A stretch of 64,000 bases of DNA, from positions 72,219 to 136,218 of the forward strand of contig JBKJLI010000003.1 of assembly GCA_046597065.1 (NCBI GenBank), read 5' to 3'. The notes under the pieces were generated by a model, which was given only the letters and a program-made list of their open reading frames with translations, did not search any database and was not told the DNA's origin. Positions within the stretch are counted from its first letter, which is position 1, and every line of letters begins with the position of its first letter. The DNA comes from Candidatus Saccharimonadia bacterium. GTDB lineage: Bacteria; Patescibacteriota; Saccharimonadia; UBA4664; SCTI01. Shown here piece after piece: positions 11,887 to 57,598 of this stretch. The translations under genes were made by a program, and so were the position numbers.

Positions 11887-11976
11887 TGGCGGAGGGGGTG
11901 GGATTCGAACCCACGAGACGGTCTCCCGCCTGCTGGTTTTCAAGACCAGTACCTTCAACCACTCGGTCACCCCTCC
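11887..11976 (-). tRNA. tRNA-Ser (anticodon TGA)
   Basis: Reverse complement folds as a class II tRNA: acceptor GGAGGGG/CCCCTCC, anticodon loop CTTGAAA, long variable arm, T-loop GGTTCGAATCC, encoded CCA. Confidence 0.9.
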
Positions 11977-12081
11977 GGGTGCGCCATGGGCGTACTATAC
12001 ACACTGAAGGGGCCGGCCAACAAGCGGTTGATTGTGCTTTAGCAGTCAACTCGGCATAATACAGCTATTAGAGGTCGTGAC

Positions 12082-12645
12082 ATGGAACCCAATCCCCAAA
12101 ATTCAACAGTAGCCGAAATTAAACCTTCGACTGAAGTTGTGCAGCTAGAAACCCAGCCGAATGATACACCTAAGGCCGATGTTCCTGAACTACCCCCATA
12201 CTCATGGCATGCTTCTGAATATATTTTTCATTCAAAGCCAGTTACTTGGTACTTAGCCTTATGGGTTATAGTGCTGGTTGTTTGCGGCGGATTAGTCTTT
12301 TTACAGCAATGGCTAAGCATAGCAGTTATTGTTGTAATGGCTTTGGCAATTAGCGTTTATACCCGTAAAGAGCCACGTGAATTACAGTACATGCTAGATT
12401 CACATGGCGTAACCGTAGACGGCAAGCTAATAGCGTACAACTTGTTTCATTCGTTTAGTGTGGCCCAAGAAATGTCGTGGCACGAAATTGATTTAGAGCC
12501 TACCAAGAGATTTGTCCCGCGCTTAACCCTTATATGCGCAACGGCCGATGCCGGACAAATAGAGCAAATTCTAGCGGCTCACTTACCACGTCAAGATCGC
12601 TTGCCCGACTGGGTTGAGCGAGCCAGCCGCCGCCTGCGTTTTTAG
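12082..12645 (+). CDS. Hypothetical membrane protein (2 TM; bPH/YdbS-like topology)
   Basis: 187-aa ORF. Two adjacent TM helices after a hydrophilic N-terminus. No recognisable catalytic motif. Confidence 0.45.
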   Translation: MEPNPQNSTVAEIKPSTEVVQLETQPNDTPKADVPELPPYSWHASEYIFHSKPVTWYLALWVIVLVVCGGLVFLQQWLSIAVIVVMALAISVYTRKEPRELQYMLDSHGVTVDGKLIAYNLFHSFSVAQEMSWHEIDLEPTKRFVPRLTLICATADAGQIEQILAAHLPRQDRLPDWVERASRRLRF

Positions 12646-12698
12646 GCTTCAAAACCTTCTACAGATGTGCTAATCTGGAACGGTCATAAACCTGGTAT

Positions 12699-12775
<77 letters not shown>

Positions 12776-12836
12776 GGAATGATTTTTGCAGCGGGACCTA
12801 GCCAATCCACCAGTAATCGGCCGGCCCAAGCGAGAT

Positions 12837-12926
12837 GGAGAGGTGGCCGAGTGGTTGAAGGCGCCGCTCTCGAAAAGCGGTATACCGGCAACGGTATCGT
12901 GGGTTCGAATCCCACCCTCTCCGCCA
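12837..12926 (+). tRNA. tRNA-Ser (anticodon CGA)
   Basis: GGAGAGGTGGCCGAGTGGTTGAAGGCG CCGCT CTCGAAA AGCGG plus a long variable arm plus GTGGGTTCGAATCCCAC CCTCTCC G CCA. Confidence 0.9.
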
Positions 12927-12960
12927 TGCTGTAACTTAACAGAATTGATAGAATAGACAG

Positions 12961-13004
12961 TGTTTTCACGTGAAAACACCAGCCGACGTTTTCACGTGAA
13001 AACG
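12961..13004. repeat. Two copies of an 18-nt perfect palindrome, (T/C)GTTTTCACGTGAAAAC(A/G), 8 nt apart in the tRNA spacer
   Basis: TGTTTTCACGTGAAAACA at 12961-12978 and CGTTTTCACGTGAAAACG at 12987-13004. The second 18-mer recurs exactly inside valS at 15148-15165. Confidence 0.9.
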
Positions 13005-13014
13005 AACACTTCGT

Positions 13015-13107
13015 GGAGAGGTACCCAAGTGGCTGAAGGGGCGGGTTTGCTAAACCTGTAGGGGGGAGTAATCCCCCGCGAGAGTTCGAATCTCTCTCTC
13101 TCCGCCA
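13015..13107 (+). tRNA. tRNA-Ser (anticodon GCT)
   Basis: GGAGAGGTACCCAAGTGGCTGAAGGGG CGGGT TTGCTAA ACCTG plus a long variable arm plus GAGAGTTCGAATCTCTC TCTCTCC G CCA. Confidence 0.9.
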
Positions 13108-28773: not shown

Positions 28774-28863
28774 GGAGAGGTGGCCGAGTGGCTGAAGGCG
28801 CACGCTTGGAAAGCGTGTATGCGGGCAACCGTATCGTGGGTTCGAATCCCACTCTCTCCGCCA
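28774..28863 (+). tRNA. tRNA-Ser (anticodon GGA); the island described next starts immediately 3' of it
   Basis: GGAGAGGTGGCCGAGTGGCTGAAGGCG CACGC TTGGAAA GCGTG plus a long variable arm plus GTGGGTTCGAATCCCAC TCTCTCC G CCA. Confidence 0.9.
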
Positions 28864-39545: not shown

Positions 39546-39727
39546 CCACGGCAGATCCCCCTTATGCTTTCTATCCATATCGTTTTAGCTTAAAATACTC
39601 GGGGCGGAACTCAGGTGCCGCCTTTGGTTTATTACGTTCGTTGACATATCCAGGCCGGATTATTGCTTTAAGGGTGATTAGCGGTAATCCGGTCTGGAAC
39701 AGACCCTTACAAAAGGAGGGATGCCAA

Positions 39728-40636
39728 GTGCATCTTGCCACTACACTGGCTGGCGTCGAGCTTGAGCATCCGCTCATGAATGCTGCTGGCACCTGCAAGA
39801 CCCTGGAGGACGTCGAGAAGCTCGCTAGGTCAAGCATTTCGGCCATTGTGGTCGGTTCCATCACCCTCGCATCCCGGATGGGGAACGAGGGGAATGTTTT
39901 CTGGCCTGGTCCGATCTACTCGCAGAACTCTCTCGGGATGCCCAATCGTGGGCGTGACTACTACCAGGACACTCTCCCGCGAATGGTCGAGGTAGCTCAT
40001 GGTGCTGGCAAGGCTCTGATCCTCAACGTCGCTGGCTTTAGCCATATCGAATATGGCGAGCTGGCAGCGCTGGCGCACGAAGCCGGGGTTGACATCATCG
40101 AGCTCAACCTCGGCTGTCCGAATGTGTGGGACGACGGTCAGCAGAAAAAGATCGCCTCGTTCGACCCATTCGGTATCGCAGCCATCATGGCTGAGGTCGA
40201 GCGCAAGGTTCCTGACGATCGACCGGTTGGTGTGAAGCTCTCGCCCTATTCCGATCCCGGGATGCTGGCGGAAGTTGCGGATACCATCAAGGATCTCCCG
40301 ATCCGGTACGTCGCCACCTGCAACACTTTCCCGAACTCGCTGGTTCTCGACGAGAATGGCAAGTCGGTGATCGACGTTGGACTGGCTGGGCTGAGTGGCC
40401 CTGCCATGAAGCCCGTCGGTCTCGGTCAGGTTAAGCAGTTGCGACAGCTTCTGCCGGACTCGGTCGAGCTCGTGGGCGTCGGCGGTATCACAAAAGGCCG
40501 CGACGTCTGGGAGTACCAGCAGGTCGGAGCTTCAGCCGTCCAGGTGGCTACGGCCTACTGGAACAGCAACGAAAACCCCGGCGTCTTCGGGGACATCCTG
40601 TCGGATTACATCGACCAGTTCCCCGAGGAGGGCTGA
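39728..40636 (+). CDS. pyrD: Dihydroorotate dehydrogenase (class 1-like), GC-rich
   Basis: GTG start 7 nt after AAAGGAGGG. ELNLGCPN motif, a GVGGI phosphate-binding loop, and an N-terminal NAAG. About 62% GC. Confidence 0.8.
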   Translation: MHLATTLAGVELEHPLMNAAGTCKTLEDVEKLARSSISAIVVGSITLASRMGNEGNVFWPGPIYSQNSLGMPNRGRDYYQDTLPRMVEVAHGAGKALILNVAGFSHIEYGELAALAHEAGVDIIELNLGCPNVWDDGQQKKIASFDPFGIAAIMAEVERKVPDDRPVGVKLSPYSDPGMLAEVADTIKDLPIRYVATCNTFPNSLVLDENGKSVIDVGLAGLSGPAMKPVGLGQVKQLRQLLPDSVELVGVGGITKGRDVWEYQQVGASAVQVATAYWNSNENPGVFGDILSDYIDQFPEEG

Positions 40637-40637
40637 C

Positions 40638-41381
40638 ATGAGCACCATCACCGATCCCATCGAGCGGATAATCTGGAGTGCGGACGTGGCTGACGAGGAA
40701 GCCTTGATGGCTGCACTCGACCGAATGCCAGATCTCCGAGTCATCAAGATCGACCGCCTGTTCGTGACCGAAGTCGGTCTGGGCGTCATCGATCGGCTGG
40801 CCGAGCGTGGGCTGCTGGTCTTCGACGACGCCAAGATCATCGAGATTCCCTCGAAGGTTGTCGGCATCGCCAAGAAGCACCTGGTACACCGACCGTTCAT
40901 GCTCAACTGCATGGCGGGTGCTCAGTCCAGTGGCCTCCTGACGCACGAAGACCCGGAGAAGGTCGACGGGCTCAAGCGGTTCGCCGATGTCTGCCTCGAA
41001 GCTGGCACCAAGCCCTGTGCAGTCACGGTGCTGACCAGCAAGACAGCAGACGTCGTCGGTAGCGAGTTCAACGGCCGAGACAGCATGGAGCAAGTGCTCT
41101 ACTACGTCGAGGCGTTGCTCGAGTGCGGCTTCACTGACGTGGTCTGCTCCCCAAAGGAGCTTCCCGCAATTCGGGCTGAGAGTCGCTTTGACGGCCTCGA
41201 CCTGAACACACCGGGAATTCGCCCGGCGGGTTCTGACGCTGGAGACCAAGCCAGGGCCGACACTCCCGAAGGGGCACTGGCGGCTGGAGCAACTCGGCTC
41301 GTCATCGGCCGACCCATCACGACCGGTGATCCGGCCGAGAACCTCAAGAACATCGTCGCCAGCATCACCGCTGAGGCCTGA
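40638..41381 (+). CDS. pyrF: Orotidine 5'-phosphate decarboxylase
   Basis: DDAKIIEIP (DxKxxDIP) catalytic motif and the C-terminal LVIGRPI. GC-rich. Confidence 0.75.
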   Translation: MSTITDPIERIIWSADVADEEALMAALDRMPDLRVIKIDRLFVTEVGLGVIDRLAERGLLVFDDAKIIEIPSKVVGIAKKHLVHRPFMLNCMAGAQSSGLLTHEDPEKVDGLKRFADVCLEAGTKPCAVTVLTSKTADVVGSEFNGRDSMEQVLYYVEALLECGFTDVVCSPKELPAIRAESRFDGLDLNTPGIRPAGSDAGDQARADTPEGALAAGATRLVIGRPITTGDPAENLKNIVASITAEA

Positions 41382-41395
41382 CCAAGGAGATCAAG

Positions 41396-42034
41396 TTGGA
41401 CGTCCTGAAAGAACTCGACCAAGCAGGTGCTGTTCTGCTCGATCAGCACTTCGTCTACAAGAGCAAGAAGCATGGGTCTGGCTACATCAACATGGACCCG
41501 CTTTTTCCCGACGTGGGGCTGGTCTCGTCGCTGTGTGCGTTGCTGGTACGACCGTTCGAGGGCGACTTCGACACGGTCGCTAGCCCGGCAACCGGTGGCG
41601 TGGTGCTTGCGTTCGCCAGTGCCATGCAGACGCCTGGTACACGGCCGGCCGCGGTTTGGGCAGACAAGGACGGGGATGAGTTCCGCTTCGAGTGAGCAGG
41701 CTTCACCGACCACCTCAAGGGCAAGCGTGTCCTGGTGGTCGAGGATCTGCTCACGACAGGCGGTTCGGTGCTCAAGGTCTGCCGAGAAGCGGAGAAGCAC
41801 GGTGCCGAGATCATCGGTGTCAGCGTCATCTGCAACCGAGGTGGCGTTACCGCCGAACAGCTCGGCGTCCCGCGACTGGAAGCACTCGCCAGCGTCAGCT
41901 TTGCGGCTGTCGATCCCGGCGAGTGTGAGCTGTGCAAGAACAACGTTCCCATCGTCGAGGACATCGGTCATGGCGAAAGCTACAAGGCCGAGCACCCCGA
42001 CTACGAGGGTGGCTACATCAAGCTGCTCTCCTGA
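41396..42034 (+). pseudogene. pyrE: Orotate phosphoribosyltransferase-like gene interrupted by a single in-frame TGA at 41693-41695
   Basis: The ORFs 41396-41695 and 41735-42034 are in the same frame and separated only by a TGA (...DEFRFE*AGFTDHLKGKRVLVVEDLLTTGGS...). The PRTase motif VLVVEDLLTTGGS lies downstream of the stop. Confidence 0.6.
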
Positions 42035-42323
42035 ACACCTAGCAGTAGGTGGGCAGCCAAGTTCTGGAGCTAATCCAGGGCTTGGCGCTCAACCCAAGAT
42101 TTTAAGCCATTAAAGTTTTAGGCTGAGTCAATAAGTAGAGCTTGACAGCGTAAGCGTTTAGTAGTATAATACCCAAGTATTTTGACAATATGCTATTACT
42201 CCCCTTGAGAGCGGCGCTCTGCAACCAAGTGTTTGGTATCAGTGTGCCGCTCTCAGCCCCCGCTGAGACCACGATGCGCATACCGCGCAAGCGTGGACGA
42301 ACACCGGCACAGGAGGATTTGTC

Positions 42324-43136
42324 ATGGGAACCAAGGCAACCCGCGAGGAGCTCGGTGACCTCGGCGTCGTGTACGCCAGGTTGTTCGAGTTCGTCAAGAA
42401 CGGCAAGAGGCCAGCAGGGCTCGTCATTGCAGGGATGCAGCGACTGGCCGATGGTCAGTTCCCGGAGAACACGCGGTTCGACCGCTACAACCACCTGCTG
42501 CTGTCCCTGGACGACCAGTTGGAGCGCCTACGGCGTTACAACACGAAGTACTGGGACAGCCGCCTGACCGATGAGCAGCTCGCTGCCGTCGACACGTCCG
42601 GTGATCTCACCCAGCGGGTCGACGACCTCACAGCCTTTCACGTCCAGTTCGACTCCCTCGAGGAGACGGTCGAGATGTGGTGGCGCGTGTACGTCGGCGA
42701 GCAGCCCAAGCAGTGGCGCTGGGACGAGCTCAAGCTCGACTCGGAGCACCTGCGGCTTCTCACTTCCAACGTCCGCCAGTACGAACCCGGTATCCATCGG
42801 ATCCGGATCGACCTGGTGGCTCACTGGGAGCCCGAGGACGGGCGCACGCTCGAGGAAGTCCGTGAGGGCGCCAAGGGCACCAGCGAGATTCTCGCTCAGC
42901 TCGAGGTCCTCTCGGCCTACGGTCTGCACTCGGAGCTTTTCCGGGAGCAGGACGGCGAGAACCTGCCGTATTCGGACATGCCCGGTACCGACGTGTCGGT
43001 TCCCGGCCGCTCCGGGCCGTGCGCTCTGTGCGTGGGCTGGTCCCCGTTCGCCCTCGAGGCCGGGCTGAACGCCGGCTGGGTCAGCCGCCGCAGCCACAAG
43101 TGGGCGGCGCCGGTGCTCAGGGAGTTGCAGAGCTAG
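42324..43136 (+). CDS. DGR target protein; its C-terminal 41 codons are the variable repeat
   Basis: 270 aa, GC-rich. The C-terminus (...CALCVGWSPFALEAGLNAGWVSRRSHKWAAPVLRELQS) lies within VR. No signal peptide. Confidence 0.75.
   Translation: MGTKATREELGDLGVVYARLFEFVKNGKRPAGLVIAGMQRLADGQFPENTRFDRYNHLLLSLDDQLERLRRYNTKYWDSRLTDEQLAAVDTSGDLTQRVDDLTAFHVQFDSLEETVEMWWRVYVGEQPKQWRWDELKLDSEHLRLLTSNVRQYEPGIHRIRIDLVAHWEPEDGRTLEEVREGAKGTSEILAQLEVLSAYGLHSELFREQDGENLPYSDMPGTDVSVPGRSGPCALCVGWSPFALEAGLNAGWVSRRSHKWAAPVLRELQS
42999..43123 (+). repeat. DGR variable repeat (VR), 125 bp
   Basis: Identical to TR (43501-43625) except at 21 positions, all of which are adenines in TR (A to G, C or T in VR). Followed by GC-rich hairpins (CTAGGACTTCGGTCCCTAG). 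Confidence 0.9.
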
Positions 43137-43500
43137 GACTTCGGTCCCTAGGGGCTTGGAGGGCCTTGGACTTCGTTCCTTGGCCCTCCGCCCCGCAGGG
43201 GCGCAAATTCAATTTTTTACGCAAGTAGATACATTGGAGAAGCGCCCCTTCTTCATGCCCAAAATTTGCTATAATCATATCTGGAAAGTAGGCTAATGAA
43301 TCCGACTTTACGGAGTCTGGGTCGCCGAAATCTCTCGTAGTCGCAGAAACTACCAGAGTTTTGGTCACTAGGGTGGCTGAAAGTGTGTAGGCGATTAACC
43401 GAGCACTCCGTGCTCCTTGCTTGAGACAGTTAAGTCTCGCATTAAATACAGGGTTTGGATACGTCCGGGCCCAGTGGATCACAAGGCAAGTAGCGCAATT

Positions 43501-43625
43501 GTTCCCGGCAACTCCAAGCCGTACGCTCTGTACGTGAACTGGAACCCGTTCAACCTCAAGGCCAAGCTGAACGCCAACTGGGTCAGCAACCGCAACAACA
43601 AGTGGGCGGCGCCGGTGCTCAGGGA
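43501..43625 (+). repeat. DGR template repeat (TR), 125 bp, rich in AAC codons
   Basis: Same frame as VR. Codons AAC/AAG sit at every diversified position. The 85-aa ORF 43417-43674 in the track is this repeat, not a gene. Confidence 0.9.
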
Positions 43626-43668
43626 CTGCTCGAATAACAGGGAGGGTGAGATACCACTCCCTGTTTTG

Positions 43669-44058
43669 TTATAGCGATTTTAGCCAGCCACCCAACATAC
43701 GGCCAATTTCATGGAGTTGAGACTCAAGAGCCAGATAGGTCTTGTTGTCGATGCATTTGCAGTCTTTGCTGAGTCGAACCATTAGCCGCAGTAGATCGAG
43801 TTTAGTTGAGGCTACGCTTAACCGCTCCTTTTTGGTTTCCGGTTTAGCAGTACTTGCCGCAGTAACAACCGCTTCCATCAGATCAAGCAGTTCGGTCTGC
43901 ATGGCTGAGCCTAACGAGTAGCGTTGGGATTTTGGAAACTTTAATAGCAATTCATGGAGAGCTTTATACAGCTGATACAGCGAATGGACAATAGGGATAT
44001 CAATCAAACCCCCACTCAACTTAGCTTGGACTTTACTACTGGCATTGGAACTAGTCAT
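43669..44058 (-). CDS. avd: DGR accessory variability determinant (Avd-like four-helix-bundle protein)
   Basis: 129 aa. ...LYKALHELLLKFPKSQRYSLGSAMQTELLDLMEAVVTAA matches the Avd/23S-IVS four-helix-bundle family core. AAGGAGG Shine-Dalgarno. Confidence 0.7.
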   Translation of the reverse strand: MTSSNASSKVQAKLSGGLIDIPIVHSLYQLYKALHELLLKFPKSQRYSLGSAMQTELLDLMEAVVTAASTAKPETKKERLSVASTKLDLLRLMVRLSKDCKCIDNKTYLALESQLHEIGRMLGGWLKSL

Positions 44059-45045
44059 GAAACCTCCTTATTATCGTCATTTGATTACATTTGTTCTATT
44101 ACAAGCCTTTTTCAGGCATGGAGCAAGTTTAGCCGGGGGAAGCGCTCAAAACTGGATGTCTTATGTTATGAGCGATCGCTAGAGGAGAACATCTTCGAAC
44201 TGCAGGAGCAGCTGGTAGGAGGTAAATTTAAACATGGCCCATATGTGCCATTTACCATTTGCGATCCAAAAACGCGCCGAATCCACAAGGCTACCGTCCA
44301 AGACCGCTTAGTTCATCAGGCACTGGTTAGTGCCATTGAGCCACTATTCGAACGCCAGTTTATTTATGACAGCTATTCCTGCCGCAAGAATAAGGGTACC
44401 CACGCAGCAGTAAGACGATTGCGAACCTTCTTACGACAAGCTAGTCATAACGACACCCAGACGGTGTACGCCCTCAAATGTGATGTGAAGCAGTTCTTTG
44501 CCTCGGTCGATCACGAGATTCTGGTGAATTTGCTGAAGCAGAAGGTTGATGATCCAGATACACTCAAGCTATTACTTTTGATAATTGATAGCCTATCCAC
44601 TTGCCCTGGCAAAGGCATCCCACTTGGTAACCTCACCAGCCAGCTTTTTGCTAATATTTACTTGCATGAGTTCGATTGGTTTGTGAAGAATCGAATACGT
44701 GAGAAGCATTATCTGCGCTATTGCGATGATTTTATTATTCTCAGCACTAACCGGCAGCATTTACTGGAATTAATTGAGCCAATTACTCGGTTTCTGAGCG
44801 ATCGGCTAGCGCTCACAGTCCACCCAAATAAGATCACAATTCGCAGCTGGGGTCAGGGTATCGACTTCTTGGGCTATGTTCTCAAGCCCCAATGTATCGT
44901 TCTGCGCCACAAGACGAAGCTACGAACGCTCAAACGGGTGGATAGCAACAATCTGACGTCTTACGTTGGGTTGTGCTCTCACGCCGACGCATATGAGCTG
45001 AGCCAGCTTATTACAATAAAGGCATTAACCAAGCAGGAGGATTAG
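44026..45045 (+). CDS. DGR reverse transcriptase
   Basis: Aligns with BPP-1 bRT from the N-terminal LFQAWSKFSRGKR. RT motifs include IPLGNLTSQLFANIYL (the DGR-specific [IL]GxxxSQ) and YCDDFIIL (YxDD). The start is uncertain: TTG at 44026 is proposed, the ORF-track ATG at 43954 would overlap avd. Confidence 0.85.
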   Translation: MDFTTGIGTSHETSLLSSFDYICSITSLFQAWSKFSRGKRSKLDVLCYERSLEENIFELQEQLVGGKFKHGPYVPFTICDPKTRRIHKATVQDRLVHQALVSAIEPLFERQFIYDSYSCRKNKGTHAAVRRLRTFLRQASHNDTQTVYALKCDVKQFFASVDHEILVNLLKQKVDDPDTLKLLLLIIDSLSTCPGKGIPLGNLTSQLFANIYLHEFDWFVKNRIREKHYLRYCDDFIILSTNRQHLLELIEPITRFLSDRLALTVHPNKITIRSWGQGIDFLGYVLKPQCIVLRHKTKLRTLKRVDSNNLTSYVGLCSHADAYELSQLITIKALTKQED

Positions 45046-48090: not shown

Positions 48091-48704
48091 ATTTCGTTAC
48101 GAAATCCGCCTTCTTAAGCCATAAAGTACTTAATCTCATCTGTAAAACCAAAATGGCTGTGCTTGCACGGCCGACCACCGAAGCCTATATTTAATAACGT
48201 CCTTATTGCAGTACCGATGAGTTAAGGAGGGTGCAGTGCCAACTGCTTCCGCACCGCACCGTCGCCACGGAACTGGGCGATCATGGTCACCAAAAGTCAC
48301 TGGGTGGCCAAAGCCAGATCCGTTGCCAGAGGGAGTTCGGCGAGCGCTTGATTCGCTGGCCAAAGATGGCCGCAGACCACGCCCTGCTTCCAACTCCCAC
48401 ACCAGAACTTTGAGGTTGCCGGTGTAGCCGAGCGTAGAAAATTTTGGCAGTTGCCAGAACTCACTCACGCAAAACACACCAAAAACCTCACCACCTACTT
48501 TTCCCAGCTGCATCCCCTGCCTGCTGGGTGAAGAGCGGGATCGTCGATTCGTCGACGGTCCCGCATTAATTTCTTAACTAAAAATTAAAGCGCTTGAGCT
48601 TTGGAAACAGCAGTAGCATAATGAAAACTAGAATGGTGAGGTGGAGTTATCTTACCGTTCGCTTTGAAAATCAGTACTACATACAACCTTCGGAAGGGGA
48701 CCAA

Positions 48705-49877
48705 ACCATGGTCGTCGTATCTTTGGACGCATCTGTGCATGATGCCGTCCAAGGGGCGGTGATTGCGGAAAGGCCGAACCTCAAGCTCATTAGTGGCGAG
48801 CATCGCATCGACGGCCCCTATCGGGGTACCGAGTTGCGCCAAGCACGCCAGTATTACGATCCTCGCAAGATCGAAACACTGGCCAGCAGTATAAAGCTGT
48901 ATGGACTCTTTAGCCCGGTCGAGCTCGTAACACTTGATGCGGCAAAGGCGGAGGAGTATCTGCATGTCTGGAATCGGGTCTGGCAAACCAGCTACACCCT
49001 TGATGACATTCCCCTTGGGCCATCCGGCCTTTATGAGATTGTCGTCACCGGGCACTGCCGGCGTCGAGCTGGAATAGCGCTGTGCGAAGCCGGTAAACCG
49101 CCGAAAGATTGGCCGATCAAGATCGTTGATTTGACGCCGATTGAAGCGCTCGACCGCCAGCTTCACGAGAACATCCACACCCTTCCCGAAGCATGGGAGG
49201 ATGCCGAGTGCATCTACCGGATGTGGAGATTTGCCGAAGAGACAACGGGAGTCGCACCGTCGATAGCGGAGCTGGCCCGGAAAGCTGGACGCTCCGAGAG
49301 TGCCGTTCGCGGATACCTCAAGTTCGCCGAGGCGCCGGAGTGTGTACAAGATGCAGTTCGTACACACTCGATCCCTTACGGCATAGGGCTGTTGCTTGGG
49401 TCTGCGGTTTCGGTTGGTGCTATCACGCAGATGGACTGCGCCGAGCACTGGCTGCCGCTAGGCACCCTGCCTGGTCAGACCGTCGAAGTGTTCGCAAAGT
49501 CAATGAAGGATCGGATCGACCAAGCACGGCTTGGACAAGAAGATCTGTTTGGCGATCTCGACACCCAGGCAGTCAGAGAGGCCTACGAGAACGACCGTCT
49601 GGCGATCGTTTTGCCCGAGATGGTACGCCGTCTCACCGAGAATCATCGCTACTTTAGGGTGGTTCTTGATCTGGCAGTTGCCGGTAAGCTAGGCCGGGAT
49701 GGTCCTTCTGGGATATTCTCGGCTGCAAGCCCGGCCCGCCACTTGATGGACGTGATCTCGTTGCTGGAGCAGCTACTTCCACACCTCAAAACCGCACTGA
49801 CTCAAGCCGATCATGACCGCGCCGAGGCGGTTCTGGCTGAGGTCGCATCGGTACTACCGGCGCTGATAGCGGTTTAG
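48705..49877 (+). CDS. ParB/sulfiredoxin-domain protein (orphan ParB-like nuclease), GC-rich
   Basis: ParB N-terminal motif (IETLASSIKLYGLFSPVELV...VTGHCRRRAG). AAGGGGA Shine-Dalgarno before ATG 48705. No adjacent parA. Confidence 0.6.
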   Translation, partial: TMVVVSLDASVHDAVQGAVIAERPNLKLISGEHRIDGPYRGTELRQARQYYDPRKIETLASSIKLYGLFSPVELVTLDAAKAEEYLHVWNRVWQTSYTLDDIPLGPSGLYEIVVTGHCRRRAGIALCEAGKPPKDWPIKIVDLTPIEALDRQLHENIHTLPEAWEDAECIYRMWRFAEETTGVAPSIAELARKAGRSESAVRGYLKFAEAPECVQDAVRTHSIPYGIGLLLGSAVSVGAITQMDCAEHWLPLGTLPGQTVEVFAKSMKDRIDQARLGQEDLFGDLDTQAVREAYENDRLAIVLPEMVRRLTENHRYFRVVLDLAVAGKLGRDGPSGIFSAASPARHLMDVISLLEQLLPHLKTALTQADHDRAEAVLAEVASVLPALIAV

Positions 49878-50040: not shown

Positions 50041-51792
50041 ATGAACGAAGTGGAGTTGGTTAAAGAGCGGCTAGATATTGCCGATGTCATTGGCGATTAT
50101 GTGCAGTTGCGCCCGGCCGGCCGAAACCTAAAGGCACCATGCCCGTTCCACCACGAAAAAACTGCCAGTTTTATGGTAAGCCCCGAAAAAGGGATTTGGC
50201 ATTGCTTTGGCTGCAATGAAGGCGGTGATGTAATTACCTTTGTGATGAAGTACGAAGGTATGGAGTTTCGGCCAGCCTTGGAAATGTTGGCCAAGCGCGC
50301 CGGTATTGAGCTTAAGGCACGTGGGTCAGGGGATAGTCAAAAGTCTAAGCAAGAGTTAGAGCGCTTGCGCGAGGCTACGGCTATGGCGGTACGTTACTTT
50401 CAGGAATCATTAATAAAGAATAAAGATGCCTTGGCCTACGCTCAGGCACGCGGCTTAAAGCGTCAAACTGTGGCCGACTTTCAGATTGGTTACGCGCCAG
50501 ATGATTGGAACGCACTGGGCCATTACTTGGTTAAAAAGGGCTTTAATGAGGCTGAATTAAAGCGAGCTGGCCTAGTTGGGCAACGTGATGGTCGCACGTC
50601 TACATATGATATGTTTCGAGCGCGATTGGTTTTTACTATCTGCGACGCTTCTGGGACGCCGGTAGGATTTACCGGTCGGGTACTATCTGATGACCAAATG
50701 CCGAAGTATTTAAATACACCCCAAACTCCTTTGTACGATAAAAGTCGCGTAATTTACGGCCTACATTTAGCCAAAGAGGCCATTAGAGAACATGACGAGG
50801 TGGTACTGGTAGAGGGAAATATGGATGTGGTAGCTAGTCATCAGGCCGGGGTAAAGCAGGTAGTGGCGGTTAGCGGGACAGCCTTAACCGAACAGCAGCT
50901 AAAAGCGCTGAGCCGGCTGACCAAAAACCTCAAGCTGTGCTTTGATGGCGACGCCGCCGGCCTGCGTGCCACCGAGCGGGCGATTGAGCTTAGCCAGGGC
51001 CTGGGTATCAATTTAGCGGTGATAACTTTGCCCGACGCCAAAGATCCCGATGAGCTAATTGCCAAAAATCTGCCCGCTTGGAAGCAAGCAATCGCTAATG
51101 CTCAGTACGCGATTGACTATTTGTTTGAGGCTTTGGCAAGCCAATATGACTTAAATAGTGCTGCCGGAAAGCGTGGATATAGCGATCATTTGAGTACAAA
51201 TCTGCGCCAACTTTCGGACCCAGTAGAACGTGAACACTATGTTAGTTTACTGGCCACCAAACTTTCGACTACCGAAGAGGCTATCCGCCAAAAATTAGCC
51301 GGCCGGAATCAAGCCAGCCTTCCAGTTTCGGCCACCAAAATACCGGCTACTGTAGTGGTACCTAAAGCCCGACCTGCCAAGCAGCTGCTAGAAGAGTCGG
51401 TACTAGCCCTAAACCTAGCTTATCCAGAAGTGCGCTTGAGTTTAGAAGAGCTAACCCCGGCCCACTTTTCTGACCCCGATCACCAGATGATCGTTGAAAC
51501 TCTACAGCGGGTTGGCACAGATAGAGTGGATGCCATCGCCCAACACTTGCCAAACCAATCCGATTATGTCAAAATACTGGCATTGAGGGGCGAAGAAGAG
51601 TATGGCTCATTCGCTCCCGCAGATCGCAGCTTAGAGGCCTTCGAGCTGGTTAGACGACTGCAAACCGCTTCAAATAAAGACACCCAGACTAAATTGCAAA
51701 AAAAACTGCGTGAAGCCCAAGCCAGTGGCGACACGCAACTTGTACATACGTTACTCGGCCAATACCAAGCATTGGTCGGTGACGGAGATTAA
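50041..51792 (+). CDS. dnaG: DNA primase
   Basis: CHC2 zinc finger ([11 protein letters not shown]...[10 protein letters not shown]), Toprim domain (EGNMDV...DGDAAG). Confidence 0.92.
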
Positions 51793-51827: not shown

Positions 51828-52937
51828 TTGGCCAAAAAAGCTGCCCCCGCACCCGAAGAAAAAGAAACTCATTATAGTCCTGAAGTCGATCGCCTGATTC
51901 AAAAGGGTAAAGAACAGGGCTTTGTGACCCAACAAGAGGTATCGCAGGTCTTTCCCGATGCCGAAGAAAACGTCGATGAGCTTGATGAGCTCTATGCTGC
52001 TCTGCTCGAAAACGGCGTAGAGCTAACCGACCAAAAAGATCGTCTGATTTGGGACAACGAGTCCGATGAAGCCGAATCAGCCACCGAGTCCGATGATTAC
52101 GTTAAGGACATTGCTGATGATTCAGTACGGCTGTACTTGCGCGAAATTGGCCGCGTACCACTACTAACCGCCGCCGAAGAGGTAGAGCTGGCCAAGCGAA
52201 TTGCTAAGGGTGATAAGGCCGCCAAAGACAAGATGGTCGAAGCCAACCTGCGTTTGGTAGTATCGATTGCCAAAAAGTACATTGGCCGTGGGTTAGACCT
52301 GTTAGATTTGATTCAAGAGGGTTCTAGCGGCTTGCTGCGTGCCGTTGAAAAGTTTGACTACACCAAGGGATTTAAGTTTAGTACCTACGCCACATGGTGG
52401 ATCCGCCAGGCCATTACCCGCGCCATTGCCGACCAGGCCCGCACCATCCGCATTCCGGTGCACATGGTTGAAACCATAAACAAGTTAATCCGTACCCAGC
52501 GTCGTTTGGTCCAAGAGCTTGGTCGCGAGCCACTGCCAGAAGAGATCGCTGCCGAGATGGAGATTGATGTCGATAAGGTAAATCACATCTTAAAAATCAA
52601 GCAGGATATCGTCTCGCTAGAAAGTCCAGTTGGCGACGATAAAGACTCCAGCCTGAGTGAGTTCATTGAGGATGTAGACGGCAAGCAGCCTCACGAAATG
52701 GCCGCCGACCAGCTGCTAAAAGAGCAGGTGGGAGAGGTGCTTGCGCTGTTAACCCCGCGCGAGCAAAAGATTTTGCGGATGCGCTTTGGGCTAGAAGACG
52801 GCCGCAGCCACACCCTAGAAGAGGTTGGCTTAGAGTTTGGTGTCACAAGAGAACGTATTCGCCAAATTGAGGCCAAGGCCTTAACCAAGTTGCGCAAGCA
52901 TCGCGAAAGTAAAAAGCTTAAAGACTACTTGGCTTAA
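51828..52937 (+). CDS. rpoD: RNA polymerase sigma factor RpoD (sigma-70)
   Basis: Region 2 ([44 protein letters not shown]) and region 4 ([23 protein letters not shown]). Confidence 0.93.
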
Positions 52938-53011: not shown

Positions 53012-53488
53012 TTGAGCGGAGTTGATGGTCAGGAGAGTTTGTTTGATGAAGGTGCAAAAAAGGCGGAGGTTGGAGCCGTCACAAATGAGTATGCCGGCTT
53101 AGATAAACCCGAAGATGGTAGCCAAGAGGGTATCATGTCAGAGATTGGGCGCTTAGAACGAGAGAATGATGAACTACAGGAGAAAATCAATGAAATGGTT
53201 GATAGTAATAACCCCAATTCTACAAAACCATTATTTGATAAGATAGCGAAAAACAACTCTAGAATTCTCGTTTTAGGCACCAAGCTTTCCGATTTGCCAC
53301 CTAAGCCCCATTTTACAGCCGAAGAACTTAAAGAGGCTTTAGCCGAAAGAGATGCCAACGAAGCTGAAGCAGCCGAGGCTGCCAGTTCTTTGGCAGATAC
53401 CGAAAAGCCGGGGATACCACCACTTACAGAAGATGAGTTAGACCCAGAAGAACAACACCATCTTAATGACCCCGGCACTAGCCACTAG
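53012..53488 (+). CDS. Hypothetical acidic protein
   Basis: 158-aa ORF, E/D-rich, coiled-coil-like. No motif. Confidence 0.35.
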   Translation: MSGVDGQESLFDEGAKKAEVGAVTNEYAGLDKPEDGSQEGIMSEIGRLERENDELQEKINEMVDSNNPNSTKPLFDKIAKNNSRILVLGTKLSDLPPKPHFTAEELKEALAERDANEAEAAEAASSLADTEKPGIPPLTEDELDPEEQHHLNDPGTSH

Positions 53489-53559
53489 CCACAGCGGCAG
53501 GGGGTTGTGGGCCCACGCTATATCTAGTATAGTAATAGGTGGATTGTCCACGATCAAAG

Positions 53560-53745
53560 GAGGTTTCTCCACGCTCCATAGAGCCACTCAGTTTTGTGGC
53601 CCCTAAGGGCATCGTCGCATCACTCGTACGGACGGACATGAAGTCCCGGGGTACAAGCAGTAATACCTCGCGAGTAGAATGCCAGAGGCGATGGCCGCAC
53701 CTAGAACCACCTGACTCAAGACCCTCAGGTCTCAAAGATCAAGGA
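53560..53745 (+). promoter_or_regulatory. Candidate c-di-AMP (ydaO/kimA-type) riboswitch in the leader of the rpf-like gene
   Basis: GC-rich structured leader with GUACGGA..., CCCGGGGUACAAGCAG and CCGCACCUAGAACCACCUGACUCAAGACC resembling ydaO conserved segments. Actinobacterial rpf genes classically carry this riboswitch. Followed by AAGGAG and a GTG start. Confidence 0.35.
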
Positions 53746-53752
53746 GTAGCAA

Positions 53753-54292
53753 GTGCGACGATCTACACTGACACTCGTTCTCGTGCTTTTTGCGTTGAGC
53801 GTTTCGCTGGCCTATGGTCAGTCGTCAACGGGCCGTGCACGGCCCTCGACAGTGCACGCCGTTGGTCTGGCCGCGAGGCTAAGCCCAACCGAACCCAGTC
53901 TTAAGACGCAGATGCGTCGCGAGGCTGAACAAAATCTGGCCCGAAAGTTGCGTCGCGTGCGACGCCACCATCTGGCCTACATCAAAAAGGCCGAGCGGGC
54001 TCTAGCGGCTCGTTTGGCAAAGCAAGCGTCAACTCCGGTTGTCGCGACCGCCACATCCGTTGGTGGTAACTCTACTTTGGCGGCCATAGCGGCTTGCGAG
54101 AGTGGGGGTAACCCCAGGGCGGTCAGTGCCAGCGGCAGCTACCGCGGCCTATTCCAGTTTGACTATGGAACATGGGCCTCGGTTGGCGGCCAAGGCGATC
54201 CGGCGGCAGCGTCGGCCAGCGAGCAGTATGCTCGTGCAGCCATGTTGTATGCCAGATCAGGGTCGGCACCTTGGCCGGTTTGTGGTCGGTGA
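53753..54292 (+). CDS. Resuscitation-promoting-factor-like (Rpf) transglycosylase-domain protein, GC-rich
   Basis: Signal peptide. Rpf domain AIAACESGGNPRAVSASGSYRGLFQFDYGTWASVGG. Confidence 0.7.
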   Translation: MRRSTLTLVLVLFALSVSLAYGQSSTGRARPSTVHAVGLAARLSPTEPSLKTQMRREAEQNLARKLRRVRRHHLAYIKKAERALAARLAKQASTPVVATATSVGGNSTLAAIAACESGGNPRAVSASGSYRGLFQFDYGTWASVGGQGDPAAASASEQYARAAMLYARSGSAPWPVCGR

Positions 54293-54768
54293 TGACAATG
54301 ATCATCAACCGCACGCTAGTCACGGTGGCGGTACTATTGGCCACCCTTGTGTCGCTTGCGACACCGGTGTTGGTCCAGGCCACGACCCAAACGTCTGGAG
54401 CTCGCTCCGAACGCGTTGTTTCAGGCCACAAGGCACCCCGCTCGTACTGGATGGTTCATCAGCACGGCAAGCTGGTGGTCCATCCCAAGCTGCTGGCGAA
54501 ACATCTCAGCAACTTGAAGTTCGGCCGTAAACATTGGCCCAACTTGCGCAGGCTGTGGAGCAATGAGTCGGGATGGAACCCACTCGCTCGTAACCGCAGC
54601 ACCGGTGCTTGCGGAATTCCCCAAGCCAACCCCTGCAGCAAGATTCCCAAACCTGGCTCGATTAAGAGCCAGATCATTTGGGGTCTCAACTACATCAAGG
54701 CTCGCTACGGCAACCCGACGGCCGCGCTGTTCTTCTGGAACTCGCGCCGGCCTTACGGTTGGTACTAG
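54292..54768 (+). CDS. Secreted lysozyme-like/SLT-domain protein
   Basis: Start at the internal Met (MTMIINRTLVTVAVLLATLVSLA signal peptide). SLT-like catalytic region WSNESGWNPLARNRSTGACGIPQ. Confidence 0.55.
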   Translation: MTMIINRTLVTVAVLLATLVSLATPVLVQATTQTSGARSERVVSGHKAPRSYWMVHQHGKLVVHPKLLAKHLSNLKFGRKHWPNLRRLWSNESGWNPLARNRSTGACGIPQANPCSKIPKPGSIKSQIIWGLNYIKARYGNPTAALFFWNSRRPYGWY

Positions 54769-54880
54769 CCAGCACATGGGCGGTTAGTTTTCGCCCCGGA
54801 GAAGCCTTGGTTTTTCCGGGGCTTCTTCACGCCCAAATAACCCGCTGCCGCGCCACATATTAAGATATAATGATTGCATT

Positions 54881-57598
54881 ATGTCGAAGAAAGAGCGCTT
54901 GGTTTTGGTGGATGGCAGCGCGGTGTTTCACCGCGGCTATCACGCTATCCCACACCTTTCAAATGCCAGTGGCGAGCCCACCAATGCCACCTATGGCTAC
55001 ACCCTAGCCTTGCTAAAAACCCTGTCAGACTTAAAACCCAAGTACGCCATCGTGGCCTGGGACAAATCTGGCGACACCTTTCGAAAAGATATGTACCCGC
55101 AGTACAAGGCCCACCGCAAAAAGCAGCCCGATGATTTGTATGCTCAAATTCCTGATACCAAAGCCGTTACCGAAGCACTTGGTCTGCCCTGGATTGAGCT
55201 GGAAAAGTTTGAGGCCGATGACATTATTGGCACCTTGGCTCGTCAGGCCGAAGAGCGAGGCTTTGAAACCATAATCGTTAGCGGTGATCGCGATGAGCTG
55301 CAGCTGATTGATAGTAATACCACGGTACAGCTATTTAATCCGGCCAAACGCTCAACCACCACTTATGACCTAGCGGCCATGCAAGATCAGTATGGCTTGA
55401 CCCCACAGCAGTTCATCGACTACAAGGCACTGCTTGGAGATGCTAGTGATAATATTCCGGGCGTCCCCGGTATCGGTGATGTTGGCGCACGCAAGCTGCT
55501 GGCCGAGTATAAAACTTTAGATGGCATTTATGAGAATTTGGATAAAATCAGTGGCAAAGTGCATGACTATCTGGCCGAAAATAAGCAGCTGGCCTACTTG
55601 AGCCTAGAGCTATCTACCATCGTTTTGGATGCGCCGGTAGAGCTCGATTTAAAGCCGGCCACGGTTGGTCATTACGACCGCCAGCAAATCCACGAGCTAT
55701 TTCGCCGCCTGGAGTTCCGCACGCTGCTAGATAAACTTCCACCCGAACTCACCAGTGCCCCAACGTTGTTCGATGATGCAGTAACGGTAGAAAAGGAGCG
55801 CAAGCATCTGAAATCGGCCCGCTATACTGCCGTAACCACACCTAGCCAACTGGCTGATCTGGCTAAGATTCTATACTCGTCCAAGGCTTTTGCATTTGAT
55901 ACCGAAACCACCAGCGTTGATGACAATAGTGCCGAGTTGGTTGGGATCTCCGCCTGTCTTAAAGAGGGTGAAGCTTATTACATCCCGGTTGCCCACAAAC
56001 AAGGGCCACAACTGGGTATGAAAACGGTAATAGAGGCGCTGCGCCCGGCCTTTGAAGATCCTAAAATTGGCAAAGTGGCCCACAATGCCAAATATGATTA
56101 CAAGGTGCTGGCCCGTCATGGGTTAACCCCTAGCCCAATCAGCTTCGACACTATGATCGCGGCCTTCATGCTCAATCCACTAGGACGCAGCCAGTCGCTG
56201 GATAACCTGGCCTATAACGAGTTTGGAATCGAAATGATCCCCATTAGTGATCTAATTGGGAGCGGTCGTAGCCAAACCACTTTCGACCACGTTGATATTG
56301 AGACTGCTACCACTTATGCCGCGGAGGATGCTGACATAACTTGGCGGTTGTATCAACGCATGGCCCCTCAGATCAAAACGGCGGGGCTAACCAAGCTAGC
56401 TGAAACCACCGAGTGGCCTTTAATTGAAGTACTTTCCCAGATGGAGCTAACTGGCATAAAGCTAGATGTCGACTTTTTGCATAATCTGAGCAAAAAGTTT
56501 GCCATCGACATTAAAAAATGTGAGCAAAAAATCTGGGAGGCCGCCGGTGAACAGTTTAATGTTTCATCACCAGCGCAGTTGGCCAACATTTTGTACGAAA
56601 AGTTGGGCCTAGATAAGTCCGGTGTAAAAAAGGGTAAGACCGGCTACAGCACGGCCGCCACCGAGCTCGATAAGCTGCGAGACGCCCATCCCATCATCCC
56701 GCTGATAAGTGAGTTCCGAGAGCTGTCAAAGCTACAGAACACCTACGTCATCACCCTACCGGAACAAGTTGATAAGTACGATCGTGTGCATACCTCATTT
56801 AATCAAACCATTGCCCAAACCGGGCGCCTTAATTCCACCAACCCAAACCTCCAGAATATACCGGTACGCACAGGAGTGGGCCGCCAAATTAGAACCGCCT
56901 TTATAGCGCCCAAGGGCCGGGTGCTGATAAGCGCCGACTATTCTCAAATTGAGCTACGAGTGGCAGCAGCGCTTAGTGAAGACCAGGGTATGATTGACAC
57001 CTTTAAGCAGGGGATCGATCTACACTTGCAGACCGCCTCGGAGCTATTTAACGTTCCGCTGGATAAGGTAACCAAAGAGCAGCGCTACAGCTCTAAAACC
57101 ATCAACTTTGGCGTGCTTTACGGCCAAACCGCCCATGGCCTGAGCGTTTCCACCGGCATGACGCGCGAAGAGGCCGCCGTCTTTATTGAACGCTATTTTG
57201 AGTTACGTAAAACTCTTAAAGACTACATCGAGGGCTTAAAAGAGTTTGGCCGTAAGCATGGCTACACCGAAACCCTTTTAGGGCGCCGCCGACCTTGCCC
57301 CGAGATAACATCGAGCAATTTTATGATCCGTAGTGCTGCTGAGCGCATTGCCGTAAACGTACCAATTCAAGGCACCGCTGCCGACATTATGAAGATGGCC
57401 ATGGTCGCATTAATGCCTCAACTGCCCAAGGGAGCCGACCTACTATTACAAATTCACGATGAACTAATTGTGGAGTGTGACCAGACGCAGTCAGAAGAGG
57501 TTGAGGCCATTATGAAAGAAGTAATGGAGAGCGTTTACGATTTGGGTGTACCGATTGTTGTTGATACCGATAGCGGCCACAATTGGGGCGAGCTCTAG
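54881..57598 (+). CDS. polA: DNA polymerase I
   Basis: 5'-3' exonuclease, 3'-5' exonuclease and polymerase domains (motif A DYSQIELR, motif B RRxxKxxNFGxxYG, motif C HDE). Confidence 0.95.
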   Translation: MSKKERLVLVDGSAVFHRGYHAIPHLSNASGEPTNATYGYTLALLKTLSDLKPKYAIVAWDKSGDTFRKDMYPQYKAHRKKQPDDLYAQIPDTKAVTEALGLPWIELEKFEADDIIGTLARQAEERGFETIIVSGDRDELQLIDSNTTVQLFNPAKRSTTTYDLAAMQDQYGLTPQQFIDYKALLGDASDNIPGVPGIGDVGARKLLAEYKTLDGIYENLDKISGKVHDYLAENKQLAYLSLELSTIVLDAPVELDLKPATVGHYDRQQIHELFRRLEFRTLLDKLPPELTSAPTLFDDAVTVEKERKHLKSARYTAVTTPSQLADLAKILYSSKAFAFDTETTSVDDNSAELVGISACLKEGEAYYIPVAHKQGPQLGMKTVIEALRPAFEDPKIGKVAHNAKYDYKVLARHGLTPSPISFDTMIAAFMLNPLGRSQSLDNLAYNEFGIEMIPISDLIGSGRSQTTFDHVDIETATTYAAEDADITWRLYQRMAPQIKTAGLTKLAETTEWPLIEVLSQMELTGIKLDVDFLHNLSKKFAIDIKKCEQKIWEAAGEQFNVSSPAQLANILYEKLGLDKSGVKKGKTGYSTAATELDKLRDAHPIIPLISEFRELSKLQNTYVITLPEQVDKYDRVHTSFNQTIAQTGRLNSTNPNLQNIPVRTGVGRQIRTAFIAPKGRVLISADYSQIELRVAAALSEDQGMIDTFKQGIDLHLQTASELFNVPLDKVTKEQRYSSKTINFGVLYGQTAHGLSVSTGMTREEAAVFIERYFELRKTLKDYIEGLKEFGRKHGYTETLLGRRRPCPEITSSNFMIRSAAERIAVNVPIQGTAADIMKMAMVALMPQLPKGADLLLQIHDELIVECDQTQSEEVEAIMKEVMESVYDLGVPIVVDTDSGHNWGEL

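Follow-up and report, generated by a model that had tools for sequence, protein, structure and literature searches.

Two predicted muralytic genes between rpoD and polA

The DNA analysed here is a stretch of 64,000 nucleotides (nt) from a Candidatus Saccharimonadia bacterium (GenBank assembly GCA_046597065.1, contig JBKJLI010000003.1), referred to at its full length as the window, and the element under study is a two-gene cassette, preceded by a structured leader RNA, that lies between rpoD and polA (Table 1). The cassette consists of two co-oriented open reading frames (ORFs), ORF1 and ORF2, already recognised as a pair of genes in a first-pass annotation made from the letters alone, and is separated from the gene upstream by 264 nt of non-coding intergenic sequence. 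The ATG of ORF2 overlaps the TGA of ORF1 (TGATG, with one shared A), suggesting that translation of the two genes may be coupled. The best named relatives of the PolA encoded downstream (61-69% amino acid identity) come from Candidatus Saccharimonadia or Saccharimonadales and from metagenome-assembled genomes (MAGs) labelled 'Patescibacteria group'; this kinship fits the small-genomed organism that the first-pass annotation had envisaged, and points to a member of the Saccharimonadia (TM7, Saccharibacteria, Patescibacteria) from soil as the host. The identical Rpf-type protein occurs in a 414-kb contig at NCBI and, independently assembled, in a Logan contig.

ORF1 is predicted to encode a secreted, Rpf-type and transglycosylase-like protein. 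The Rpf domain that had been proposed for it is recovered by Pfam PF06737 over residues 106-177 with 68.4 bits against a gathering threshold of 27 (E 8.6e-19), and by the catalytic domains of M. tuberculosis RpfC, RpfE and RpfB in the PDB, which align with it end to end over the domain at E values of 8e-13 to 2e-8 (best match RpfC, 2n5z, E 7.6e-13). E116, in the motif CESGG, and the pair C115/C177 align with their counterparts in the RpfC structures 2n5z and 4ow1, and across 19 homologues neither the predicted catalytic glutamate nor either cysteine varies. Against the NCBIfam equivalog models for RpfC (NF046107) and Rpf (NF046106), ORF1 gives partial matches of 64.9 bits (cut-off 200) and 40 bits (cut-off 180), and because these values fall well under the cut-offs it is regarded as a domain relative of the named mycobacterial Rpf proteins and not as an orthologue of any of them. 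The protein begins with MRRS, followed by a 15-residue hydrophobic core (residues 6-20, Kyte-Doolittle 2.63) and then AYG/Q. By inspection, basic residues and a 15-residue hydrophobic core (Kyte-Doolittle 2.6) are present in both proteins of the cassette, in agreement with the signal peptides first assigned to them.

The Rpf family has been described as confined to Actinobacteria (Ravagnani et al., PMC1084345), and in a literature search Saccharibacteria and Patescibacteria were linked to Rpf by nothing more than incidental co-mentions. ORF1 resembles the actinobacterial proteins (M. tuberculosis RpfA-E and Micrococcus luteus Rpf) in the glutamate of CESGG, the disulfide cysteine pair and the predicted secretion, and, like many rpf genes, it stands behind a long structured leader. 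It differs from them in its Saccharimonadia host, its lineage-specific N-terminal linker, its coupling to a lysozyme-like gene and its leader, which is a different RNA.

ORF2 is a predicted secreted SLT/lysozyme-like enzyme of the 'aggregation-promoting factor C-terminal' type. It scores 76.8 bits against a cut-off of 40 with NCBIfam NF052397 ('aggregation-promoting factor C-terminal-like') and matches PHROG phage transglycosylase families at E 2.5e-17, and its score with Pfam SLT is sub-threshold (13.6 versus 21.3). The SLT-like region that had been noticed in the second gene, a C-terminal E-S...GACGIPQ motif, is borne out by these matches and by E92, S93, G108, P110 and Q111, which are invariant in 41 homologues (motifs E-S and G-x-x-Q or G-I-P-Q). 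As in ORF1, there is a single N-terminal hydrophobic segment, with its core at residues 9-23 and basic residues before it. An AlphaFold model of ORF2 has a predicted local distance difference test (pLDDT) score above 90 across residues 51-150, and its top Foldseek matches in the PDB are mostly lytic transglycosylases (MltF, Slt70, Cj0843 and a phage lytic transglycosidase) at E values of about 1; no closely related solved structure was found in the PDB search. The N-terminal half of ORF2 is confined to a small family derived mostly from the candidate phyla radiation, with 123 proteins in 5.8 billion. Relatives of the locus were collected as contigs fetched with PolA and Rpf homologues (numbered L002 and so on), and orthologues of ORF2 follow rpf in L032 (59% amino acid identity overall) and L040 (50%). 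ORF2 is thus akin to the C-terminal region of Lactobacillus aggregation-promoting factor and to family-1 lytic transglycosylases (SLT, GH23-like) in its NF052397 match and its E-S...G-x-x-Q motifs, and differs from them in its sub-threshold Pfam SLT score, its weak structural matches and its unique N-terminal half.

Table 1. Features of the cassette and its flanks, in window coordinates
Feature	Position	Strand	Remarks
dnaG	50041-51792		upstream of ORF1 and ORF2
rpoD	51828-52937		upstream; five of five sigma-70 regions present (Pfam)
acidic protein gene, 158 residues	53012-53488		directly upstream of the cassette
sigma-70-type promoter, tentative	53505-53533	+	TTGTGG, 17 nt, TATAGT; inferred; 5' untranslated region of about 210 nt
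leader RNA core	53576-53720	+	covariance model, hand alignment; absent from Rfam
P0 hairpin	53576-53608	+	
P1a	53610-53616 with 53687-53693	+	
ATCGTCGCA, part of the P1a 5' strand	53611-53619	+	perfect 9-nt complement of 53754-53762 (TGCGACGAT)
P1	53622-53626 with 53671-53675	+	
P2	53630-53646	+	
P3	53647-53670	+	
putative anti-initiation tail	53687-53714	+	P1a 3' strand, then GCCGCACC, then CCACCU
conserved 3' tail	53694-53720	+	
P4 hairpin and initiation site	53721-53752	+	AGACC-CUCA-GGUCU; Shine-Dalgarno AAGGAG 53741-53746; 6-nt spacer; GTG
ORF1, rpf-like	53753-54292	+	GTG start, 179 residues; ORF list, Pfam
ORF1 layout	Rpf catalytic domain about 54062-54289		predicted signal peptide, residues about 1-22; basic helical linker; Rpf catalytic domain, residues 104-179
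ORF2	54292-54768	+	158 residues; ATG at 54292 in public annotation of identical sequence
terminator hairpin, probable	54793-54822	+	13-bp GC-rich stem, then UUCUUC; -36.6 kcal/mol, z = -4.6
polA	54881-57598		downstream; followed by a NUDIX gene, fpg and holA

Origin and age of the Rpf domain

To determine the origin of the Rpf domain, a scan was performed with ORF1 using one genome per GTDB species. This returned 27 loci, 26 of which lie in Actinomycetota, mostly in Thermoleophilia (Solirubrobacterales, Thermoleophilaceae and Paraconexibacter), the exception being a MAG labelled 'Acidobacteriota'; the actinobacterial type that the first-pass annotation had assigned to the domain is therefore upheld. 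The best Thermoleophilia Rpf matches share 75-88% amino acid identity with the last 70-80 residues of ORF1, and metagenome proteins of the Thermoleophilia type reach 92% across the Rpf domain. Similarity to Thermoleophilia at the DNA level is limited to the domain (54079-54300, about 220 nt), where identity is 67-77% (about 73%), no higher than the identity to a syntenic TM7 relative (74%). The domain of the window is 87% identical to that of the Solirubrobacteraceae locus Th_L005, 80% identical to that of the TM7 locus L002 and 70% identical to that of the TM7 locus L040, and on a neighbour-joining tree the TM7 Rpf domains are interspersed among those of Thermoleophilia. This arrangement would fit either several exchanges or unequal rates, and 71 residues are too few to decide between the two.

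The G+C content (GC) is 61.5% in rpf, 58.1% in ORF2 and 54.2% in the leader, compared with 50.4% in the window, and 200-nt windows between 53700 and 54800 range from 54 to 63%. At third codon positions (GC3), rpf has 59-61%, its flanks have 56% and Thermoleophilia domains have a mean of 90%. The excess in rpf lies at codon positions 1 and 2 (63% versus 48% in the flanks), and therefore stems mostly from a composition rich in Ala, Gly, Arg and Pro. Six relatives show the same GC pattern in the cassette, and both pattern and chromosomal site recur in relatives whose PolA is only 69-73% identical to that of the window. The earlier description of the cassette as a GC-rich islet is correct in that GC is raised; the recency that it implies does not hold, since the GC3 of rpf is near that of the flanks and both pattern and site recur in relatives. 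A recent island is rejected by the GC3 comparison with Thermoleophilia.

An island gained recently by horizontal transfer, or a chimera in which assembly fused actinobacterial DNA with a TM7 contig, would account for a GC content 8-11 points above the flanks and for the high identity of the Rpf domain to Thermoleophilia-type proteins. Such an origin is nevertheless barely credible, given that the identical sequence occurs in two independent assemblies, that the same cassette occupies the same site in distant relatives, that nucleotide identity to Thermoleophilia is modest and confined to the domain, that GC3 is ameliorated and that a flanking direct repeat occurs at chance level. This repeat, GGyACTAGCCA, is 11 nt long and lies at 53474-53484 and 54761-54771, where the upstream gene and ORF2 have their stop codons. 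As a candidate island boundary it was discarded: about ten such pairs are expected by chance in the stretch, and L032 does not carry it. The Rpf catalytic domain is accordingly best read as the product of an old transfer to TM7 from Actinomycetota, of Thermoleophilia-like source, that has since been ameliorated.

A conserved leader RNA and its possible pairing with the start site

The leader is conserved well beyond the genes that it precedes. Between the window and L032 it is 85.3% identical, a value to be set beside 85.5% for the 3' end of rpoD (98.9% at the amino acid level), 71% for both coding sequences of the cassette and 61-65% for the neighbouring gene and the downstream spacer. Blocks of the leader recur in nine independent Saccharimonadia leaders, each upstream of the first gene at this site whatever its product, and all nine stand directly upstream of genes for predicted secreted muralytic proteins (Rpf, 3D-like or RlpA-like DPBB). 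The folding energy of the 264-nt intergenic stretch is somewhat better than that of shuffled sequences (z = -2.1).

The nine leaders were segmented and aligned by hand (alignment A7, with N as the gap symbol), as MAFFT scrambles the variable hairpins. On this alignment, 94.2% of the 242 cells in the five helices are paired, compared with 35-42% when the partners are slid, and of 33 pairs, 14 carry compensatory changes, with both sides changed. Covariation scores 0.278, compared with 0.122 in shuffles, and none of 500 shuffles attained the observed score. RNAalifold, run on the same hand alignment and thus not independent of it, recovered P0, P1a, P2 and P3. In the consensus, P0 is closed by CC(n)UAG/CUA(n)GG (CCAGA/UCUGG in L043 and L044), P1a pairs AUCGUC with GGCGAU, P1 pairs (C)UCG with CGA(G), the junction reads UAY, and P2 and P3 follow GGnn...nnCC and CG...CG, respectively. 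The junction and tail bases CGUAYGG, CCCG and UCGCGA are invariant in the nine leaders, whereas the stems covary and the loops vary.

A covariance model (R1) built on these leaders has one match in the window (53576-53719, 58.2 bits, E 6e-14; runner-up 14 bits) and scores the remaining eight leaders at 48-91 bits. In the window and loci together, about 1.2 Mb, the model found only its nine source leaders and L042; the latter, a duplicate of L041, was also its only match in 711 kb of control loci, and there was no match in the 27 Thermoleophilia rpf loci. A metagenome DNA pattern scan for the D and E blocks of the leader gave no matches, in a collection that does not hold the JGI records carrying L002 and L004, and a PolA-based metagenome scan gave four close relatives, none with the motif. 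The 68 nt upstream of a stand-alone ORF2 homologue (L129) likewise contain no leader motif. A pattern scan of viral contigs gave one match, inside a phage tape-measure gene, that was rejected by the covariance model as due to chance. Judged from this comparative evidence, the leader is a conserved structured RNA that is specific to its lineage and has no Rfam counterpart.

The first-pass annotation had likened the leader to the ydaO/kimA riboswitch (RF00379), which senses cyclic di-AMP (c-di-AMP). Riboswitches of this kind also precede rpf genes, and the ydaO architecture is pseudo-two-fold, with seven helices and a pseudoknot. The leader instead comprises one hairpin, one three-way junction and a single-stranded tail. 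When 53400-53850 was compared with 4227 Rfam families using cmscan, no match was found at E<=10, and 53570-53765 gave only a spurious wrong-strand miRNA match; RF00379 is thus silent at E<=10 for the leader of the window, as it is for that of L002, and no relevant Rfam match was found at E<=1 across the homologous leaders of L002, L040, L041 and L043. At Rfam gathering thresholds the window contains five tRNAs and nothing else, and 12 Thermoleophilia rpf loci contain no riboswitch. A GTRHR-type diadenylate cyclase (DAC) signature is absent from the 64 kb, which is weak evidence. The proposed resemblance to ydaO/kimA therefore does not stand, nor does the suggestion that the leader arrived with an actinobacterial rpf: its motif is absent from the 27 Thermoleophilia rpf loci, and therefore the RNA did not come along with the Rpf domain. 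What survives of the original proposal is a structured, probably cis-regulatory RNA in the intergenic stretch before the genes, and the best matches of ORF1 remain Rpf proteins and not phage lysins.

A divergent ydaO/kimA switch inherited together with the actinobacterial gene is very improbable in light of these negative searches and of the different helix layout, even though c-di-AMP riboswitches are common upstream of cell-wall hydrolase genes (PMC5737381) and Rpf, 3D-like and DPBB genes stand behind the TM7 leader. The leader, which appears not to be a ydaO c-di-AMP riboswitch, shares with that class its place in the 5' untranslated region of cell-wall hydrolase genes, a multi-helix structure, a comparable size and probably control at the level of expression, a likeness of functional analogy only. 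It is set apart by the lack of a covariance-model match, by its layout and by a distribution so far limited to one Saccharimonadia clade.

Two further candidates were considered and rejected. A hammerhead-like CUGAUGA occurs in the tail of two of the nine leaders but is not kept by the rest, and no Rfam match backs it. An ATG at 53638 opens a frame for a leader peptide (within ORF 53539-53904); this frame is interrupted by a 1-nt deletion in L032, and the ORF is not conserved. Pairings of the tail with the AYGG junction or with the 5' end of the transcript are anecdotal. Far from the leader, sub-threshold type III hammerhead matches occur in L043 (15568-15622, 39.9 bits) and L041 (10532-10574, 28.9 bits), where the gathering score is 48.5.

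The cassette also appears to carry its own expression signals. The element at 53505-53533 is tentatively taken as the promoter of the two-gene unit, and L032 has TTGATA-17-TATAGT at the aligned place. The hairpin at 54793-54822 is the probable transcription terminator of the unit; it is kept in L032, and was missed by a simple terminator scan, its U-tract being poor. Hairpins of different sequence occupy the place of P4 in L032, L041, L043, L044 and L048.

The tail directly 3' of P1a is the most conserved single-stranded stretch of the leader, reading UGyUcCAUCCC-AAA-CCCACCUGAuGAA in most leaders and GCCGCACCU-AGAA-CCACCUGAC in the window. Using RNAduplex, a co-linear duplex between the tail and the initiation region can be drawn in all nine leaders, at -11.6 to -21.9 kcal/mol (-14.5 kcal/mol, z = -1.6, in the window). 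It consists of three blocks, in which CCU/CC pairs with the Shine-Dalgarno sequence, CAUC (or CGCAC) pairs with the start codon, and codons 3-4 pair with the final bases of the P1a 3' strand together with two others. Pairing in the two regular blocks amounts to 87.5%, compared with 21-55% when slid, and the tail beats shuffled tails in seven of nine leaders and is the best partner anywhere in the leader for four. Leaders with an AUG start have CAU in the tail, and of the five with a GUG start three have CAC. In addition, the 53611-53619 block within the P1a 5' strand is complementary to the last two bases of the start codon and codons 2-3, and RNAduplex identifies it as the best partner of the region from Shine-Dalgarno sequence to start in both the window and L032 (-19.5 kcal/mol). 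This block is a candidate for an alternative helix, specific to the lineage of the window and L032, that would sequester the start site.

The muralytic enzyme slot and its proposed control

The cassette occupies a variable slot in an otherwise common gene order. The backbone dnaG-rpoD-(small acidic protein)-[slot]-polA-NUDIX-fpg-holA is shared by relatives with 65-73% PolA identity, and synteny of rpoD, a hypothetical gene, the cassette and polA is seen in L002/L003, L037, L040, L041/L042, L043, L044 and L048. The slot holds an Rpf gene and an ORF2-type gene in the window and in L040; an Rpf gene and a 3D-like protein gene in L002/L003; two Rpf-domain genes in L037 and L041/L042; a divergent Rpf gene in L048; a 3D-like protein gene alone in L043; and a gene for an RlpA-like DPBB_1 protein in L044. 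It is empty in L038 and L046. L032 carries the whole unit of leader, rpf, ORF2 and terminator, followed by a TrmB-like gene in place of polA, and in L052 the slot holds a kinase-like gene and the leader motif is absent. All occupants behind the leader are predicted to be secreted and to be, or to resemble, enzymes that cleave glycan strands.

The divergent Rpf gene of L048 (4361-4891), which lies behind a conserved leader, was not called by the source gene caller; a minus-strand ORF at 4514-4870 was called instead. The proteins of L043 (6300-6917) and L044 (2392-2961) share a homologous N-terminal region of about 90 residues (48% identity) with the motif C-x-S-R-x-C-K-x-R-E-W-L-K-H-H-P-R-P, and differ in their C-terminal domains (3D-like and DPBB_1), suggesting that domains may have been swapped behind a conserved leader and N-terminal module.

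From these features a mechanism can be proposed. The cassette would be a self-contained unit of promoter, structured 5' untranslated region of about 210 nt, two coupled muralytic genes and terminator hairpin. In its leader, the P1a/P1 closing helix would enclose a three-way junction, formed with P2 and P3, that contains the invariant junction bases, and the P1a 3' strand would run on into the C-rich tail, which could pair with the Shine-Dalgarno sequence, the start codon and codons 2-4. Since the P1a closing helix and the anti-initiation duplex share four bases, folding of the junction should release the ribosome-binding site, and translation would be turned on; a bound ligand or protein could stabilise the junction fold. 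In the lineage of the window, the complement of the start region in the P1a 5' strand may provide the same logic via the other strand. We infer translational switching, the direction of the switch and the existence of a ligand from this arrangement. The leader marks a 'muralytic enzyme slot': in related genomes one and the same leader, in an unchanged position, would drive genes of the Rpf, 3D-like or RlpA-like DPBB type.

The reading as a whole, comprising two muralytic enzymes, an old transfer of the Rpf domain, a leader other than ydaO and the proposed switch, is assigned a probability of roughly 0.7. Several points weigh against it. Only nine leaders are available, of which those of the window and L032 are close kin and those of L043 and L044 partly so, and since the alignment was made by hand to suit the structure, the pair counts are inflated. 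The P1 helix is short, with only 84% pairing. In two of the nine leaders the pairing of the tail is no better than that of shuffled tails, and the covariation of the tail pairing was reached by 91 of 500 shuffles, so that it amounts to conserved complementarity and not to proven covariation. A consensus promoter scan did not list 53505-53533, where the -35 element is weak. The Rpf domain tree is a neighbour-joining tree of 71 residues with no support values, and the Foldseek match of ORF2 to lytic transglycosylases is without statistical significance. Finally, a protein-binding leader would look the same as a ligand switch.

The last point concerns what operates the leader. That it is a new class of small-molecule riboswitch, with a wall-related metabolite (for example a muropeptide or nucleotide-sugar precursor) or a second messenger, among them c-di-AMP recognised via a different fold, as its putative ligand, is possible but short of an even chance. 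Invariant junction and tail bases amid covarying stems and variable loops, a tail that resembles an expression platform and overlaps the closing helix, and the tie of the motif to genes of a single functional class, irrespective of fold, are in keeping with such a switch. The sample is small, however, a single-stranded tail could equally be a contact for a protein or the ribosome, and comparable orphan motifs before lysM and M23 genes have resisted ligand identification. The latter are the lysM-TM7, lysM-Actino, lysM-Prevotella and M23 motifs, which were termed 'c-di-AMP-related' by gene context and for which binding of c-di-AMP was not observed (Weinberg et al. 2017, PMC5737381). Like them, the leader is a candidate cis-regulatory RNA before peptidoglycan-hydrolase genes, and one of them likewise occurs in TM7; unlike them, it serves Rpf, 3D-like, DPBB and SLT-like genes and not LysM or M23 genes, and it is larger (about 145 nt, five helices). 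The leader has no correct-strand Rfam match, a comparison to be read with the proviso that the presence of these motifs in the Rfam release was not confirmed.

Operation by a protein such as a TrmB-like regulator, a stabilising or processing role of the 5' untranslated region, or a set of DNA operators is unlikely. A TrmB-family gene flanks the cassette in L032 (2379-3002), L037 (285-1046) and L044 (3076-3861), and the window has a homologue (53% amino acid identity) on the minus strand at 11096-11839, 42 kb from the cassette, as a possible protein partner. The gene is not adjacent to the cassette in the window, L002, L040, L041 or L043, however, and the compensatory changes in the leader favour RNA pairing over DNA operators.

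Elsewhere in the window, a diversity-generating retroelement spans 42324-45045. Its 125-nt variable repeat (42999-43123) forms the 3' end of a 270-residue ORF without a Pfam match, its template repeat lies at 43501-43625, with every mismatch corresponding to an adenine in the template copy, and its reverse transcriptase ORF lies at 43954-45045 (RVT_1, E 1.6e-24). The retroelement explains part of a GC-rich stretch at 41.4-43.6 kb. A pyrD-like gene (DHO_dh) and pyrF (OMPdecase), at 39641-41381, open a stretch of 60-62% GC at 40-43.5 kb, and the next ORF after pyrF (41427-42113) has no Pfam match. Just upstream of dnaG, in another locally GC-rich stretch (59%), lies a 427-residue ORF (48594-49877) that also has no Pfam match. 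The five tRNA genes lie in 11890-13104 and 28774-28860, with four of them clustered at 11.9-13.1 kb.

With respect to the biology of the host, cultured Saccharibacteria have been described as obligate episymbionts of Actinobacteria, and with the cassette an Rpf-type enzyme would be a stable and regulated component of the chromosome in an ultrasmall lineage of episymbionts, of which the cultured members live on such hosts. A host-directed or host-adapted role of the enzymes may be somewhat more likely than remodelling of the bacterium's own wall, though this is not established, because unrelated glycan-cleaving folds are interchangeable behind one leader and because the Rpf domain is Thermoleophilia-like; its place among the domains of soil Thermoleophilia offers a host hypothesis for uncultured soil Saccharibacteria. 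To our knowledge, Patescibacteria have few described regulatory RNAs. Within the cassette the greater novelty lies in the leader, a compact RNA of about 145 nt and five helices that is conserved where housekeeping proteins are about 70% identical. The motif could serve both as a defined RNA on which to screen ligands and as a marker by which to find such effector genes. A more far-reaching and rather doubtful extension is that the leader forms a riboswitch class confined to Saccharimonadia, which senses a wall or host signal and gates a slot of swappable enzymes acting on the host wall, with domains repeatedly recruited from the host Actinomycetota, in this case Thermoleophilia. If this were true, the nearest relatives of the Rpf domain would predict the host.

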